From the IMG/VR virus record IMGVR_UViG_2579778894_000017: 8,667 bases of DNA; one strand, written 5' to 3'. Under the pieces are notes generated by a model. It was not told the DNA's origin, did no database searches, and saw only the letters and a list, made by a program, of their open reading frames with translations. This document shows, piece by piece, positions 296-6,032 of this stretch; position 1 is the first letter of the stretch, and each line of letters begins with the position of its first letter. Both the position numbers and the translations under genes were made by a program. The DNA is from a virus. Lineage: Duplodnaviria; Heunggongvirae; Uroviricota; Caudoviricetes.

Positions 296-353
296 AAAAA
301 CGGCGGCAGAGCAGTCACGGAGTAAAACTGATACCGCCAAACGTCACCAGAAA
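296..353 (-). ncRNA. dicF: DicF small regulatory RNA (ftsZ-targeting prophage sRNA); ends approximate
   Basis: The minus strand reads TTTCTGGTGACGTTTGGCGGTATCAGTTTTACTCCGTGACTGCTCTGCCGCCG followed by TTTTT, which matches my memory of the about 53-nt E. coli DicF RNA. A GGCGG/CCGCC stem plus U-tract forms an intrinsic terminator at the 3' end. It sits downstream of ydfC on the same strand, as in the K-12 ydfABC-dicF-dicB operon. Recognition is from memory, not a database hit. Confidence 0.8.
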
Positions 354-1395: not shown

Positions 1396-1803
1396 TTATT
1401 TTATTGATTTGTTTTTACGTGCTTTAAGCATTTCTTCGAAGAGTTTATTGAAATTCTCTACTCTTGCGCGCATTTCAGACAGTAAGGCTTCCTGCTCGGA
1501 GGAGGGAAGAGCATCGAATAATTCGATCAATTCTTTGTGGCTGGGAGTTAACTCGGTTTCCACATGAAGTTCTTGTGCTGGCACTGGTGCCTTGTCTTCG
1601 TCACCAAACATTAGCCATGTAGGCGAGCACTTCAGCGCATCAGCTAAAGCAAATAACCGCTTCCCGACCGGTTGGGTTTCGTCTCTTTCCCATTGTGAAA
1701 TTGTGACGTGAGCTACCCCAGCGAGGCGTGCAGCTTCTCGTTGTGTTAGGCGTAATTCTTTTCGTCGTGCCAGAACTCGCTGGCCTAGGGTTCTTGTATC
1801 CAT
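1396..1803 (-). CDS. dicA: DicA-like HTH (XRE-family) prophage repressor
   Basis: 135-aa ORF. The N-terminal HTH (LTQREAARLAGVAHVTISQWER) and the segments LFALADALKCSPTWLMFGDEDK and EMRARVENFNKLFEEMLKARK closely match my memory of E. coli DicA, also 135 aa. Divergent from a Cro-like gene; no S24 peptidase domain. Confidence 0.85.
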   Translation of the reverse strand: MDTRTLGQRVLARRKELRLTQREAARLAGVAHVTISQWERDETQPVGKRLFALADALKCSPTWLMFGDEDKAPVPAQELHVETELTPSHKELIELFDALPSSEQEALLSEMRARVENFNKLFEEMLKARKNKSIK

Positions 1804-2616: not shown

Positions 2617-3562
2617 ACGCCCACTGGTTATAAACACACAGCTTGCGATGAAGATTGGCTTAAATGAAGCCATTGTGTTGCAGCAGTTGCATTACTGGTT
2701 GAGAGATACCAGTTCCGGTATGGAATGTGACGGGGTTCGCTGGATTTATAACACAACAGAACAATGGCTGGAACAGTTCCCGTTCTGGTCAGAGTCAACG
2801 TTAAAACGCGCATTTGCAAGTCTGAAAACGCTGGGGCTTTTGCGTTGCGAAAAGCTCAACAAATCAAAGCGTGATATGACTAATTTTTACACGATTAATT
2901 ACGAGAGTGAGCTTTTAGATGGTGGCAAAGTGAGCGAATCCATCAGGTCAAAATGCGCCGCTCCATCGGGTCAAAATGACACGATGGAAGAGGTCAAAAT
3001 GGCACGCTCCATTGGTTCAAAACGACCCAATGTCATCGGGTCAAAATGGCCTGATGATCTTACAGAGAATACAACAGAGATTACTACAGAGAATAAAAAC
3101 ACTTCTCGTCCGGAAGCTTCGCAACCGGACCCGCAGACGGCTGAACAGGATTTTTTAACCCGACACCCTGACGCGGTTGTGTTCAGTGCGAAAAAACGCC
3201 AGTGGGGAAGTCAGGAAGATTTGGCGTGCGCACAGTGGATCTGGGGACGAATCGTGAGTCTTTACGAGCAGGCTGCCAGCGATGATGGCGAGATCACGCG
3301 ACCGAAAGAACCAAACTGGACCGCATGGGCCAATGACGTGCGCACAATGCGGATGCTGGATGGCAGAAGCCACAGACAAATTTGCGAAATGTTTGGTCGG
3401 GTACAGCGAGATCCATTCTGGGTAAAAAACATCATGAGCCCGTCAAAGCTTCGCGAAAAATGGGACGACCTGGTCATCCGCCTGGGGCGTTCACCTGTAC
3501 AGTGTTGTGTGAATCATATTTCTGAACCGGATACCGAAATTCCGCCTGGTTTCAGGGGATAA
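2597..3562 (+). CDS. Phage replication initiator (lambda O-like replisome organizer) containing the origin iterons
   Basis: Long ORF; the preferred start is the ATG at 2597 (MSLLFAERPLV...), with the track start at 2543 as an alternative. The N-terminal region looks like a winged-helix DNA-binding domain. The central low-complexity linker (SGQNDTMEEVKMARSIGSKRPNVIGSKW) is encoded by tandem iterons, the hallmark of lambda O-type initiators. Confidence 0.75.
   Translation: MSLLFAERPLVINTQLAMKIGLNEAIVLQQLHYWLRDTSSGMECDGVRWIYNTTEQWLEQFPFWSESTLKRAFASLKTLGLLRCEKLNKSKRDMTNFYTINYESELLDGGKVSESIRSKCAAPSGQNDTMEEVKMARSIGSKRPNVIGSKWPDDLTENTTEITTENKNTSRPEASQPDPQTAEQDFLTRHPDAVVFSAKKRQWGSQEDLACAQWIWGRIVSLYEQAASDDGEITRPKEPNWTAWANDVRTMRMLDGRSHRQICEMFGRVQRDPFWVKNIMSPSKLREKWDDLVIRLGRSPVQCCVNHISEPDTEIPPGFRG
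2944..3096. repeat. Putative phage replication origin: five GGTCAAAATG iterons at about 23-bp spacing, then an AT-rich block with three 12-bp tandem repeats
   Basis: Iterons at 2946-2955, 2969-2978, 2992-3001, 3014-3024 (degenerate GGTTCAAAACG) and 3039-3048, several sharing the longer CATCGGGTCAAAATG. Followed at 3061-3096 by tacagagaatac / aacagagattac / tacagagaataa. Confidence 0.7.
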
Positions 3563-3602
3563 GTGGTGATTTTAGGGCATAAAGTAATGTTCAGGAGGAC
3601 TT

Positions 3603-4010
3603 ATGGCAAAAGTATTTACACAGGAAGAGCGGGAAAAAATTAAAGGACAGGTGGTGGAACTCGTGCGCCAGAGCGGTCGTGAGACGTTACGGCAACTGGA
3701 AGCTAAAACAGGTGCGACAAGATATCTGATGAGCGTTCTTGCCAGAGAGCTGGTTGCCAGTGGTGATGTATATCACTCTGGCTATGGGGTGTTCCCGTCA
3801 GAACGGGCTCGTAAGGACTGGCAAAACGCCCGCAAAAAACTCTCGAGGGCAAAGGTGAAGAAACCTGTTGTGGTTGATCCGGGCCTTATCTGGACATTAC
3901 CCGACGGAGAAATACGCCGCTACGACAGGCGTATGAACATAATCTGTCGCGAGTGCCGGAAGAGCGAAGTTATGCAGCGTGTATTGGCGTTCTATCAGGG
4001 ATATGCCTAG
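3603..4010 (+). CDS. Hypothetical prophage protein (135 aa), possibly DNA-binding
   Basis: ORF with a strong RBS (AGGAGG) 5 nt upstream of the ATG. Basic protein with a single CxxC (CRECRK). It occupies the slot where lambda P or a DnaC-like helicase loader would normally follow the initiator. No family recognised. Confidence 0.65.
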   Translation: MAKVFTQEEREKIKGQVVELVRQSGRETLRQLEAKTGATRYLMSVLARELVASGDVYHSGYGVFPSERARKDWQNARKKLSRAKVKKPVVVDPGLIWTLPDGEIRRYDRRMNIICRECRKSEVMQRVLAFYQGYA

Positions 4011-4056
4011 AATTGTCACAGGTAATGAAATTAAAGAGTATTGGTTCGGATATGAA

Positions 4057-4085
4057 TTGACATTTTCGCGGCACAGAGCTAAAAA
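4057..4085 (+). promoter_or_regulatory. Candidate sigma70 promoter at the start of the AT-rich segment
   Basis: Consensus -35 TTGACA (4057-4062), 17-bp spacer, then TAAAAA (4080-4085). It is about 300 bp upstream of the SIR2-like ORF, so it is either a long-leader promoter or unrelated. Confidence 0.3.
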
Positions 4086-4378
4086 TAGCCTACTTGTTGG
4101 TTTTGTGTGAAAAGCAGACATTTTGAGACTCAGGATTTGTTATCAAATAAGACCAATACTTATCTATATTAATACACATTAAATACTGTGCAATACATTA
4201 TTGCATTTTATTAGATAAGCGATATTTAGGGAAAAGAAAAGTCATAGAAAACAGGCCGCTATTTGTTGTTGGATTTTATAGGCTATATCTAGATTATCTT
4301 GCCACTGCGGTCTCTGTTTACCTAACAGCTTGGGCTTCTTTGCATGCAAGTTTGTAATAACAAGAGTAATCAAACGGA

Positions 4379-5410
4379 ATGTCTATTAATCCTAAACTTA
4401 AGCGTATCGCGCGACGCTATCCAGCGTTATTCCAATATGAGTCCCCCTATATGGCAAGAAAATTAATAATATTCGGCAACGGTCTCGGTATGGCTTTAGA
4501 TCCTGCTCACTTCTCCTTAGACAGAGCGTTGGAAGAAATTTGGCATCGCCCCAATTTTTTAAAAGATATCCACAAGCAACTTATCGAGCGTTGTCTTCAG
4601 CGGCAAGGTCCACCAGAAGGAGAACATGAGTTGGATACCCTTCACCAGGCTGTCACATATTGTAAAGCTCTTGCTCAAATTGGAGAGGGGAACGTGCATT
4701 GGCTTACTGAAGATGGACTAAACTTCCCCAAAATTACCGCCACTTATATTCACAAAGTTGCAACCAGGTTGCATAATTACGATAAAGGTTTGCCACAAAG
4801 ATTCGAAAATGCGCTTGTGGAGTTTGTAAAGAACACACACTCACATATCGCGACATTAAACTATGACAAATTATTATACAATTCATTCATAGATAATGAT
4901 ATATTCAACGGGTATGATGGGGTTTTAGTTGATGGGATGCTAAGCCACGGATTTTCCTCTGCAGCGCTCGAACGGAAATACAATCGTAGGTTTGGTTATT
5001 ATTTGCACTTGCATGGTTCACCACTATTTATTAATCAGCATGAAAATGTTTTAAAACTTTCACGCTCACAACTTACTCTTGACATAGATGAACCTAGTGA
5101 GCATATAGTGTTAACTCATATAAAAAGAAAACCGTCAGTTATAGCAGCATCTAATGTTCTTTCTACGTACTGGGATTATTTGCAGTTTGCATTATTTGAA
5201 TCAGAAGAAATAATATTGTTTGGTTACTCTGGTCTCGATATTCACCTTAACCTGCTTATTCGACCTTACCTAACCTCTAAGCCTTTAAGAGTAATTGAGT
5301 GGAGCGGTGCTGGTGAACAAAACGCTCGTGAGATATATTGGAAAAACCAGTTGAGACGGGAAGTTACTGTAATTAGGTTGGATAACATCACTGATTTTAT
5401 TGATTGGTAG
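4379..5410 (+). CDS. SIR2-like (DHS-like NAD-binding fold) protein; candidate NAD+-degrading anti-phage defence effector
   Basis: 343-aa ORF in a visibly AT-rich segment. Ordered motifs typical of defence-type SIR2 domains: glycine-rich IIFGNGLG (aa 30-37), TLNYD (aa 159-163), HLHGS (aa 210-214) and FGYSGLD (aa 281-287). Start codon uncertain (4379 has a weak RBS; alternative ATG at 4451). Confidence 0.7.
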   Translation: MSINPKLKRIARRYPALFQYESPYMARKLIIFGNGLGMALDPAHFSLDRALEEIWHRPNFLKDIHKQLIERCLQRQGPPEGEHELDTLHQAVTYCKALAQIGEGNVHWLTEDGLNFPKITATYIHKVATRLHNYDKGLPQRFENALVEFVKNTHSHIATLNYDKLLYNSFIDNDIFNGYDGVLVDGMLSHGFSSAALERKYNRRFGYYLHLHGSPLFINQHENVLKLSRSQLTLDIDEPSEHIVLTHIKRKPSVIAASNVLSTYWDYLQFALFESEEIILFGYSGLDIHLNLLIRPYLTSKPLRVIEWSGAGEQNAREIYWKNQLRREVTVIRLDNITDFIDW

Positions 5411-5480
5411 CGCAATGCGAAGTTAAAGAGGCAGCCTCATATTTATCAGAGCTGGTGTACGTCCAATACAGGAGGTTATC

Positions 5481-5570
5481 GTGCTGGTTCTCAAATGCGC
5501 GCTGGCTATTGCGGCTGTAGTGGCAATTTATTGTCTTGCTATTGTTCTTATGGATCGCCTTTCTGATTGA
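5481..5570 (+). CDS. Putative 29-aa hydrophobic single-TM peptide
   Basis: AGGAGG at 5471-5476, 4 nt before GTG at 5481; translation MLVLKCALAIAAVVAIYCLAIVLMDRLSD, stop TGA at 5568-5570. Too short for the ORF track. One predicted TM helix with a charged C-terminal tail. Confidence 0.4.
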   Translation: MLVLKCALAIAAVVAIYCLAIVLMDRLSD

Positions 5571-5595: not shown

Positions 5596-5660
5596 TTAAG
5601 TAGAATTGCTGCGGGTGCTTGAGGCTGTCTGCCTCGGGCATGCCACCGTAAGGCAGACAG
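5596..5660 (+). promoter_or_regulatory. hok mRNA 5' leader: upstream complementary box and leader hairpin
   Basis: 5' GCGGGTGCTTGAGG (5611-5624) is complementary to CCTCAACGCACCCGC (5987-6001) near the mRNA 3' end, and GTTAAGT (5596-5601) to CACTTAAC (6001-6008). Hairpin CTGTCTGCC (5625-5633) / GGCAGACAG (5652-5660). Confidence 0.6.
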
Positions 5661-5689
5661 AGAAAAGCCCCAGTTAACATTACGCGTCC

Positions 5690-5760
5690 TGCAAGACGCT
5701 TAACATTAATCTGAGGCCCAATCTATGCTTCACAAACGTAGGTTAGCCTCTTACGCGCCG
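5690..5760 (-). ncRNA. Possible Sok-type antisense RNA overlapping the mok start (boundaries not determined)
   Basis: By analogy with hok/sok loci, the antitoxin RNA is encoded antisense to the mok translation-initiation region. A short GCGTC/GACGC inverted repeat and a duplicated TTAACATTA lie here. No promoter or terminator was pinned down. Confidence 0.25.
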
Positions 5761-5937
5761 AAAGGCAAGGAGAAGCAGGCTATGAAGCAGCAAAAGGCGA
5801 TGTTAATCGCCCTGATCGTCATCTGTTTAACCGTCATAGTGACGGCACTGGTAACGAGGAAAGACCTCTGCGAGGTACGAATCCGAACCGGCCAGACGGA
5901 GGTCGCTGTCTTCACAGCTTACGAACCTGAGGAGTAA
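5725..5937 (+). CDS. Mok-like reading frame (in-frame N-terminal extension of hok)
   Basis: 70-aa ORF sharing frame and stop with hok, the arrangement I recall for chromosomal mok/hok pairs. Its start sits where the antisense RNA would pair. Confidence 0.45.
   Translation: MLHKRRLASYAPKGKEKQAMKQQKAMLIALIVICLTVIVTALVTRKDLCEVRIRTGQTEVAVFTAYEPEE
5782..5937 (+). CDS. hokD: Hok/Gef-family type I toxin (51 aa), closest to HokD/RelF
   Basis: MKQQKAMLIALIVICLTVIVTALVTRKDLCEVRIRTGQTEVAVFTAYEPEE has the Hok-family signature (single TM, conserved RKDLCEV, TGQTEVAVF). AAGGAGAAG RBS upstream of the ATG at 5782. Confidence 0.9.
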   Translation: MKQQKAMLIALIVICLTVIVTALVTRKDLCEVRIRTGQTEVAVFTAYEPEE

Positions 5938-6005
5938 GAGACCAGGCGGGGGAGAAATCCCTCGCCACCGCTGATGTGTCAGGCATCCTCAACGCACCCG
6001 CACTT

Positions 6006-6032
6006 AACCCGCTTCGGCGGGTTTTTGTTTTT
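6006..6032 (+). terminator. Intrinsic terminator of the hok transcript
   Basis: AACCCGC-ttcg-GCGGGTT stem-loop followed by TTTTGTTTTT. Confidence 0.75.

Follow-up and report, generated by a model that had tools for sequence, protein, structure and literature searches.

The 8,667-nt stretch of DNA from the IMG/VR virus record IMGVR_UViG_2579778894_000017 (Caudoviricetes; hereafter the window, meaning the whole stretch that was analysed) carries on its plus strand, at 4451..5410, a gene for a 319-residue single-domain protein of the SIR2_2 type (RefSeq WP_000101550.1, 'SIR2 family protein'). The gene almost certainly encodes a SIR2-fold NAD-binding enzyme residing on a mobile cassette. According to the explanation that we favour, it is a piece of self-contained prophage cargo (a 'moron'), a 1.3-kb AT-rich cassette bringing its own leader and a single gene, whose product consists of essentially nothing but a SIR2_2 ('SIRim') domain with the full set of NAD+-binding and catalytic residues and without a zinc module. 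We consider a role in anti-phage defence fairly probable. That the protein depletes NAD+ as an autonomous single gene is close to an even call, leaning if anything to the negative, and the reading as a whole, a prophage-borne solo SIR2_2 protein acting as an NAD+-consuming antiphage effector, is evenly balanced.

The identification of the enzyme relies on motifs, profile matches and fold. A first-pass annotation, made from the nucleotide sequence without database searches, had reported a 343-amino-acid (aa) open reading frame (ORF) at 4379-5410 with four motif blocks of defence-type SIR2 (DHS-like NAD-binding) domains. This plus-strand ORF is indeed present, the four motifs occur in the reported order, and their conservation was measured across 58 homologues of 57-87% identity (residue numbers refer to the 343-aa ORF unless stated otherwise). 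The glycine-rich NAD-binding loop IIFGNGLG (4466-4489) lies just past the first β-strand, which spans residues 28-32 in the predicted model, and its G33, N34, G35 and G37 are nearly invariant. In TLNYD (4853-4867) all five residues, T159, L160, N161, Y162 and D163, are invariant, Asn161 and Asp163 corresponding to Asn137 and Asp139 in the numbering of the 319-aa product. We take this motif, from established knowledge of sirtuins, to be the counterpart of the sirtuin TQNxD motif that makes nicotinamide-ribose contacts. HLHGS (5006-5020) is likewise invariant (H210, L211, H212, G213 and S214), and His212 (His188 in the 319-aa numbering) is the presumed catalytic histidine. Finally, FGYSGLD (5219-5239), with G282, Y283, G285 and D287 invariant and F281 and S284 nearly so, appears to correspond to the G-T/S-S loop of sirtuins involved with the ribose and phosphate of NAD, the mapping of motifs onto sirtuins having been made by sequence pattern and not by structural superposition. 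All four motifs lie on the plus strand.

The Pfam profile SIR2_2 (PF13289), the only Pfam family found in the protein, is passed narrowly (26.1 bits against a gathering threshold of 24.5, E=1e-5, residues 156-302), and 57 of the 58 relatives match it at E<=1e-3, marginally. A confident AlphaFold2 model built on the 58-sequence alignment (mean predicted local distance difference test score, pLDDT, 88.3; predicted template-modelling score, pTM, 0.88) has a Rossmann-type SIR2 fold with a helical subdomain. Since the motifs are near-invariant in the 58 homologues, the SIR2_2 threshold is passed and the predicted fold is that of SIR2, the motifs are not a product of chance. Foldseek placed the SIR2 subunits of E. 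coli SIR2-HerA/Nezha complexes at the top of the matches in the PDB (8uae_B, E=3.3e-11, template-modelling score, TM, 0.59; 14-17% identity for the top matches of this kind), followed by CobB, the SIR2 of SPARSA and human SIRT2. In a second fold search the highest score, 19.3 over 275 aligned residues, was obtained with PsSIR2 (8w9l), ahead of 8yhx_G (18.4), the Nezha Sir2 (8j4u; 17.8), ThsA (14.2), KomC (14.0), an archaeal Sir2 (12.9), the SIR2 of Avs5 (12.4), SirTM (11.0) and FAM118B (10.9). The structural similarity to known SIR2 domains that the motifs had led one to expect is thus found, while no DSR chains are among the matches listed in either fold search. Searches of PDB sequences with the protein and with the family profile gave nothing relevant, and searches of the protein against NCBIfam and PHROGs gave no family. 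PADLOC (2023 models), a natural check of the proposed defence assignment, recognises the protein weakly: Aga_SIR2 at 3.8e-6, PDC-S21 at 8.4e-6 and SIR2 (PDLC04093) at 6e-5.

The SIR2 fold covers nearly all of the 319 residues, so that a separate sensor domain could not be accommodated. The protein contains two cysteines only, C72 and C95, and therefore has no Cys4 zinc module of the kind present in deacetylating sirtuins. Immune sirtuins of the SIR2_2/'SIRim' type likewise have no zinc module (PMC12700824; bioRxiv 10.1101/2024.09.18.613514). Fold, residues and the missing zinc module together support membership in this immunity-type subfamily.

The same features bear on the possibility that the protein is not a bulk NADase and instead uses NAD+ to modify proteins, as a deacylase or mono-ADP-ribosyltransferase. 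Its target would then be one particular protein of the host or of a phage, and its role that of a regulator or of a factor for lysogenic conversion or virulence, comparable to Campylobacter jejuni SliP. The nearest link to such proteins is DUF4917 (PF16263), the family of SliP and PD-T7-2A, which together with PDC-S21 comprises SIR2-like single-domain proteins of similar length. DUF4917 is weakly matched by 33 of the 58 relatives at E<=1e-3, but the window protein has no match to it at E<=1, and the two relatives checked scored 18.0 and 23.7 bits, below the gathering threshold of 28 bits. SliP has been described as a secreted sirtuin deacetylase (PMC10421069), whereas PD-T7-2A acts with a HerA-like partner (PMC9519451 supplement). 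Pathogenic E. coli (O55:H7, O111:H2 and porcine enterotoxigenic E. coli) are among the carriers of the gene, and a fixed protein substrate would fit its high conservation. However, canonical deacetylases need the zinc module that is missing here (PMC12700824), the closest structures are immune NADases and not deacylases, and most of the family comes from free-living Proteobacteria of sea and soil and from Chloroflexota, which argues against an effector directed at animal hosts. We therefore regard a protein-modifying enzyme as unlikely. PDC-S21, for its part, probably represents a family adjacent to this one and not the family itself: its match to the window protein (23.5 bits) joins residues 26-230 to positions 18-210 of the 336 in the model, and 48 of the 58 relatives match it weakly (best 3.5e-9), all far below the scores that its members should reach.

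The product is most probably shorter than the ORF first reported. The first-pass annotation had started the gene at ATG 4379, behind a leader of 370 bp; the true start is most probably ATG 4451 (M25 of the 343-aa ORF), giving 319 aa. It is here that RefSeq begins the coding sequence. Most homologues are 319-320 aa long, and the family consensus opens with MxRKLIIFGNG at Met25; DNA homology to distant relatives starts at 4448-4451, and in those relatives a good Shine-Dalgarno sequence is found at this place. The 24 in-frame codons upstream (4379..4450, plus strand) have a proportion of non-synonymous differences (pN) of 0.18-0.37 against 0.05-0.11 in the gene body; non-synonymous divergence is 3.5-fold higher in them than in the body, and their ratio of non-synonymous to synonymous substitution (dN/dS) is 0.5-0.7. 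This extension, missing from most homologues and modelled with low pLDDT (65-75 for residues 1-30 of the long ORF), is probably untranslated. The RefSeq annotation, the consensus, the Shine-Dalgarno sequence, the limit of homology and the upstream divergence together speak against ATG 4379 as the start. With the start at 4451, the intergenic leader is therefore ~440 bp long (4011-4450). Pairwise dN/dS of the gene against six relatives is 0.055-0.157, indicating that it is functional and under strong purifying selection.

Gene and leader form a discrete cassette (4068..5427, plus strand), recognisable by its junctions and its base composition and occupying a variable slot between the DUF977 gene and hokD. 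Its GC content is 38.1%, whereas the remainder of the window has 49.4%. The low GC reported earlier for the gene and its leader was found in both: 38.9% in the gene (34.4% at third codon positions, GC3, compared with 50-55% in five neighbouring genes) and 36.0% in the leader. Two sister prophages without the gene (L015 and L017) are homologous to the window up to 4065-4067 and again from 5428. Conversely, three loci that place the gene in an unrelated chromosomal context adjoining TacA/TacT and IS110 (L010-L012) share with the window 87% DNA identity over 4102-5424 and have nothing else in common with it. The sharp junctions and the unrelated context of these three loci define the mobile unit as the leader plus one gene, ~1.3 kb. 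The horizontal acquisition suggested by the first-pass annotation is thus supported, and the unit acquired is this AT-rich cassette.

The part of the leader that moves with the gene (4068..4450, plus strand) represents a conserved, AT-rich 5' untranslated and promoter region; from ~4118 it is ~87% conserved with L010 and L012 although the flanks are unrelated. A scan for promoter consensus sequences gave no site within the conserved part of the leader; a weak promoter, TTGGGC-17-TGTAAT at 4330-4358, may be proposed by eye. Rfam finds no known RNA in the leader. An ORF on the minus strand of the leader (4242-4373) was considered as a hidden antitoxin or partner and was rejected as coding because indels of 4 nt and 15 nt relative to L010 break its frame. 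As to the ends of the cassette, nothing in the way of terminal repeats was found there beyond an imperfect 12-nt direct repeat, GAAATTAAAGAG at 4027-4038 and GAAGTTAAAGAG at 5419-5430. The second copy lies exactly on the right junction and the first ~30 nt ahead of the left one; the repeat may be a recombination footprint or a coincidence.

The first-pass annotation had located the gene between the replication module and a hok locus, where lambdoid prophages often carry defence genes. The gene does lie downstream of the replication genes and DUF977 and upstream of hokD/sok; it is co-oriented with the rightward early operon and its replication genes and starts 440 bp past the DUF977 gene. Sister prophages fill the same interval with other cargo. 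In E. coli EC21Z-147 (L015) the equivalent slot holds at 2639-3664 a 341-aa protein with a RelA/SpoT domain, matching the PADLOC single-gene defence candidate PDC-S33 at E=5.3e-119; elsewhere, the slot is filled by an alpha/beta hydrolase (on the opposite strand), QueH, an S-adenosylmethionine-dependent methyltransferase, or DUF7167 with small ORFs. Of all these, only the RelA/SpoT protein matches a PADLOC model. The DUF977-hokD interval is therefore a cargo hotspot, one of whose alternative occupants is a recognised defence candidate.

To place the gene within its family, we consider its relatives and their distribution. A word-indexed search collected 794 homologues, the best 120 of which, at 56-99% identity, come from Escherichia, Pantoea, Serratia, Citrobacter, Klebsiella, Vibrio, Aeromonas, Pseudoalteromonas, Chromobacterium and Pseudoduganella as well as from a Desulfobacteria genome. 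An exhaustive search with the family profile, run against 1.84 billion representatives, matched no more than 360 clusters (at 50% identity) at E<=1e-3, of which 200 reached <=1e-30. In the top 150, almost every complete protein is solo, ~310-380 aa long and aligned end to end; the shorter ones look like fragments. The number of clusters and the end-to-end matches characterise the family as small, sharply bounded and single-domain. A pattern scan with one genome per species detected it in ~100 of 185,579 species, spread over Gamma-, Beta-, Alpha- and Zetaproteobacteria, Chloroflexota and Binatia, and 46 of 5,426 complete E. coli genomes carry the gene. On plasmids there is one distant match only, in Marinobacter. 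In IMG/VR the gene is present on 21 viral contigs. Distant alleles (41-53% identity) occur there on phage contigs of 40-51 kb at differing moron positions, past the portal gene in one contig and past a tail fibre gene and a DNA methyltransferase in another, and independent, repeated capture by unrelated phages supports the favoured explanation.

This distribution also speaks to whether the gene could serve the phage itself, as a counter-defence enzyme that degrades or modifies NAD-derived immune signals or remodels NAD pools for the benefit of the prophage. Its place in the early region, transcribed in the direction of the replication genes, would suit such a function, and SIR2 enzymes do act on NAD-derived substrates. 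Most members of the family are, however, chromosomal and not phage-borne; the gene is absent from the genomes of isolated phages in GenBank (searched as DNA and with tblastn), and no similar fold is present among BFVD viral structures at E<1e-3. We know of no SIR2-type anti-defence protein and consider this function very improbable.

Neighbouring genes were examined in nine close relatives, and 926 neighbouring ORFs from 87 loci were clustered. No neighbour is common to the clade that holds the window gene, the neighbours of close relatives being unrelated to one another. In line with what the first-pass annotation had said, no SLOG, TIR, HerA or Argonaute genes are present in the window or in the 25.7 kb of annotated context. 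Recurrent neighbours occur only in distant clades and none of them in the window. In seven alphaproteobacterial loci (L064, L073, L079, L084, L088, L095 and L097) a distant SIR2 homologue (38-43% identity) is preceded on the same strand by an ORF of ~204 aa (~9400-10050 in each locus) that overlaps its start and has no sequence match in Pfam or the PDB; the pair may represent a two-gene version of the system. Two Vibrio proteins, P0042 (506 aa) and P0044 (541 aa), have mutually homologous N-terminal extensions of ~190-225 aa, joined directly to the usual start MTRKLIIFGNG; they may be a module for sensing or regulation, or else reflect read-through from the gene upstream. The extensions have no match in Pfam or the PDB, and no link between them and the ~204-aa ORF was found.

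Both arrangements raise the possibility that the window protein is a defence effector that does not act on its own, depending on an unlinked partner (for instance a HerA-like ATPase or some other factor of host or prophage), or that it is the orphaned remnant of a two-gene system. The closest fold, the Sir2 of Sir2-HerA, points the same way, having no NADase activity without HerA and a phage trigger (PMC13434337). Yet the unit that moves consists of a leader and the SIR2 gene only, the best 150 representatives are nearly all solo, no neighbour recurs in the clade of the window gene, and the gene is under strong purifying selection where it stands alone, which speaks against an orphan in decay. 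We consider dependence on a partner rather unlikely.

In Rhodobacteraceae, the homologue lies 21-44 bp downstream of a nicotinate phosphoribosyltransferase gene on the same strand (L083, L089 and L092; 8665-9980 in each), and in L089, L092 and L093 an RF-1-domain (ArfB-like) gene follows it on the opposite strand. These cases belong to one syntenic lineage and should be counted as one event. The linkage would suit a function in NAD+ metabolism or physiological regulation without any role in phage defence, the prophage copy being a passenger. High conservation and low dN/dS would fit this as well, as would the housekeeping surroundings (sucCD, rpoD/dnaG) of some loci. Against such a function stand the patchy distribution across species and among E. 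coli genomes, the atypical base composition, the movement as a cassette, the repeated capture by prophages and the defence neighbours, all features of an accessory and not of a housekeeping gene. A purely metabolic role is thus quite improbable.

The defence neighbours just mentioned are found at several loci. The Citrobacter homologue is located on an integrase-bounded island with a C5 DNA methylase, Hachiman (HamA and helicase) and a giant SACS/NOV_C protein, whereas the Serratia homologue is flanked by a PDC-M36A-like protein (5.9e-21) and by a Fic protein with a SoFic-like C-terminal domain. Among 113 neighbours from 17 close-clade loci there are three SNF2 helicases with very strong matches to DpdE/ZorD/DrmD, as well as two dGTPase matches. 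TacA/TacT and IS110, beside the gene at L010-L012, belong in this list too. For SIR2 proteins in general, those validated as antiphage all belong to the SIR2_2/SIRim clade, the neighbourhoods of which are 12-fold enriched in defence systems (bioRxiv 10.1101/2024.09.18.613514).

Several observations nevertheless weigh against a solo antiphage NADase. With no sensor domain in the protein, the trigger is left unexplained, and the Sir2 with the most similar fold is inactive alone, as noted above. Identities of 56-82% from E. coli to Vibrio, Aeromonas and a Desulfobacteria genome are unusually high for a sensor of phages; being atypical of proteins that recognise fast-evolving phage proteins, such conservation suggests a cue or an assembly surface that is itself conserved. 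The best PADLOC matches across the 58 relatives are still weak (1e-8 to 3.5e-9). The association with defence neighbours, as read from a listing of neighbouring genes, is real but partial, and ordinary contexts also occur: past sucCD in Aeromonas, beside a LysR gene in Klebsiella and, at one locus, near rpoD/dnaG. The nicotinate phosphoribosyltransferase neighbour, an enzyme of NAD salvage, hints at a metabolic link. To these may be added the absence from isolated phages in GenBank and the fact that we found in the literature no experimental or comparative study of the 319-aa SIR2 family.

Comparison with described SIR2 systems shows that, by their defining features, the gene falls outside Sir2-HerA, DSR, Thoeris, SPARSA, Kongming and sole-Sir2. 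The Sir2 of Sir2-HerA/Nezha (8w9l, 8yhx, 8j4u, 8uae and 8sub) is of a similar size class, has no zinc module and shares the NAD-binding motifs. Its identity to the window protein is nonetheless 14-17%, no PDB chain is detectable by sequence even with the family profile, the PADLOC SIR2 model PDLC04093 (395 positions) scores 20.2 bits, and the HerA ATPase that adjoins it is found neither beside the window gene nor in any locus examined. Sole-Sir2 (CRISPR-supervised, CRISIS) is likewise a small, stand-alone, single-gene Sir2 defence; it converts NAD+ to ADP-ribose in vitro, and protection against T2 and T4 is given by one of its homologues (bioRxiv 10.1101/2024.12.27.630466), so that it provides a conceptual precedent for defence by a solo SIR2. 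It is, however, ~440 aa long, with a non-SIR2 N-terminal part (a proposed sensor) and a DSR2-like C-terminal Sir2, whereas the window protein has 319 aa, a SIR2 fold nearly throughout and its nearest structures among the Sir2-HerA type; the two are set apart here by length and domain layout.

DSR1 and DSR2 are also single-gene, NAD+-depleting defences of the SIR2_2 subfamily. They are ~1,000 aa long, with large C-terminal sensor domains that bind the phage tail tube protein (PMC11087589, PMC11263360), and the window protein, with its 319 aa, is much shorter, as the first-pass annotation had pointed out, and has none of this sensor region. Thoeris ThsA needs SLOG and the TIR protein ThsB, neither of which is present in the protein or its context. 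Kongming KomC needs KomA/KomB with dITP, and these are not present at the window locus; Avs5 is a STAND NTPase with a sensor, which the window protein does not have. In SPARSA (Aga_SIR2), a SIR2-APAZ protein is encoded beside a short Argonaute, whereas the Aga_SIR2 match obtained here is weak and there is no Argonaute in the neighbourhoods examined. A parallel in architecture is vertebrate FAM118B, also SIR2_2, ~300-350 aa long, essentially single-domain and devoid of a zinc module. FAM118B forms filaments and processes NAD (PMC12700824), showing that self-assembly alone can control a minimal SIR2_2 protein of this kind.

The prophage that carries the cassette can be described from a near-identical copy. 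The window is 99.97% identical to a prophage of E. coli O111:H2 strain 12A, lambdoid and Qin/Rac-like, whose integration site adjoins yccA. Its genes are arranged in the order int, exo, dicB, ydfC and cI-like repressor on the left and cro, YdaT, replication protein, DUF977, SIR2, hokD/sok, rem, DUF968 and RusA on the right. In the window, the immunity region (1396-2616) consists of the cI-like helix-turn-helix repressor (1396-1803, minus strand), divergent from a Cro/CI-family gene (1881-2111), and of a YdaT-family gene (2095-2616). The antisense small RNA DicF (301-352, minus strand; Rfam RF00039, 72.5 bits), located in a dicB/ydfC-type region, confirms the Qin/Rac-like nature of the prophage; sok and DicF are the Rfam matches in the window. 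The stretch at 5613-6023 is part of the prophage backbone, being found irrespective of which cargo occupies the DUF977-hokD slot. Also in a backbone position, directly past the cassette and upstream of hok/sok, there is a strongly hydrophobic ORF of 29 aa, VLVLKCALAIAAVVAIYCLAIVLMDRLSD, at 5481-5570 (plus strand), with a GTG start and AGGAGG at ~5471-5476. It is unannotated by RefSeq in strain 12A, its DNA is kept in sister prophages, and its product could be a small membrane peptide. In strain 12A (L001, 24362-25701) this prophage is probably defective, as an ISEc22 transposase adjoins its truncated large terminase gene; the SIR2 gene has nevertheless stayed intact.

How might a bare SIR2 domain protect a lysogen? 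Under the favoured explanation, the lysogen would express the SIR2 protein, which would consume NAD+ and thereby cause abortive infection or growth arrest, protecting host and prophage against superinfecting phages; NAD+ depletion and abortive infection are what the fold, the conservation of motifs and the genomic context suggest. Activation would come about by a change in self-assembly, into an oligomer or a filament, upon a cue of infection, such as a phage protein or a small molecule. We infer that control by self-assembly is the most likely mode because there is neither a sensor domain nor a partner gene. Activation based on assembly is established for ThsA, Avs5, KomBC and FAM118B (PMC11897194, PMC13454610, PMC12700824, bioRxiv 10.64898/2026.03.01.708072). 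A bolder version, which would make this the smallest SIR2 immune protein yet known to be self-sufficient, sensing infection and depleting NAD+ without sensor domain, partner or second messenger, is doubtful; in it, the unusually conserved surface would either drive triggered self-assembly or respond to a cue from the host or from a metabolite that is itself conserved and not to a variable phage protein.

SIR2 NADases are among the commonest effectors of bacterial immunity, and the SIR2 defence systems that we found described all couple SIR2 to a sensor of infection, be it HerA, SLOG with TIR, a STAND NTPase, Argonaute, a region of ~700 aa, KomA/B or an N-terminal module. The first-pass annotation had called the gene uncharacterised. 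This holds insofar as the family appears unstudied; RefSeq already names the product 'SIR2 family protein', so its domain identity is not new. What is new is the predicted occurrence of SIR2-based immunity in a minimal, partner-less, single-domain form. Should the protein turn out to be a protein-modifying enzyme, it would instead be a candidate lysogenic-conversion factor in strains of the enteropathogenic and enterohaemorrhagic E. coli lineages. If the favoured explanation is true, a defence gene weakly matched by the 2023 PADLOC models would be added to those known, and the interval from DUF977 to hokD in Qin/Rac-like lambdoid prophages would stand out as a cargo hotspot that deserves to be mined. 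A bare, conserved one-gene SIR2 would also pose the question of how such an enzyme is silenced and then switched on, and would offer a minimal model for activation by assembly, relevant to the FAM118 sirtuins of vertebrates.

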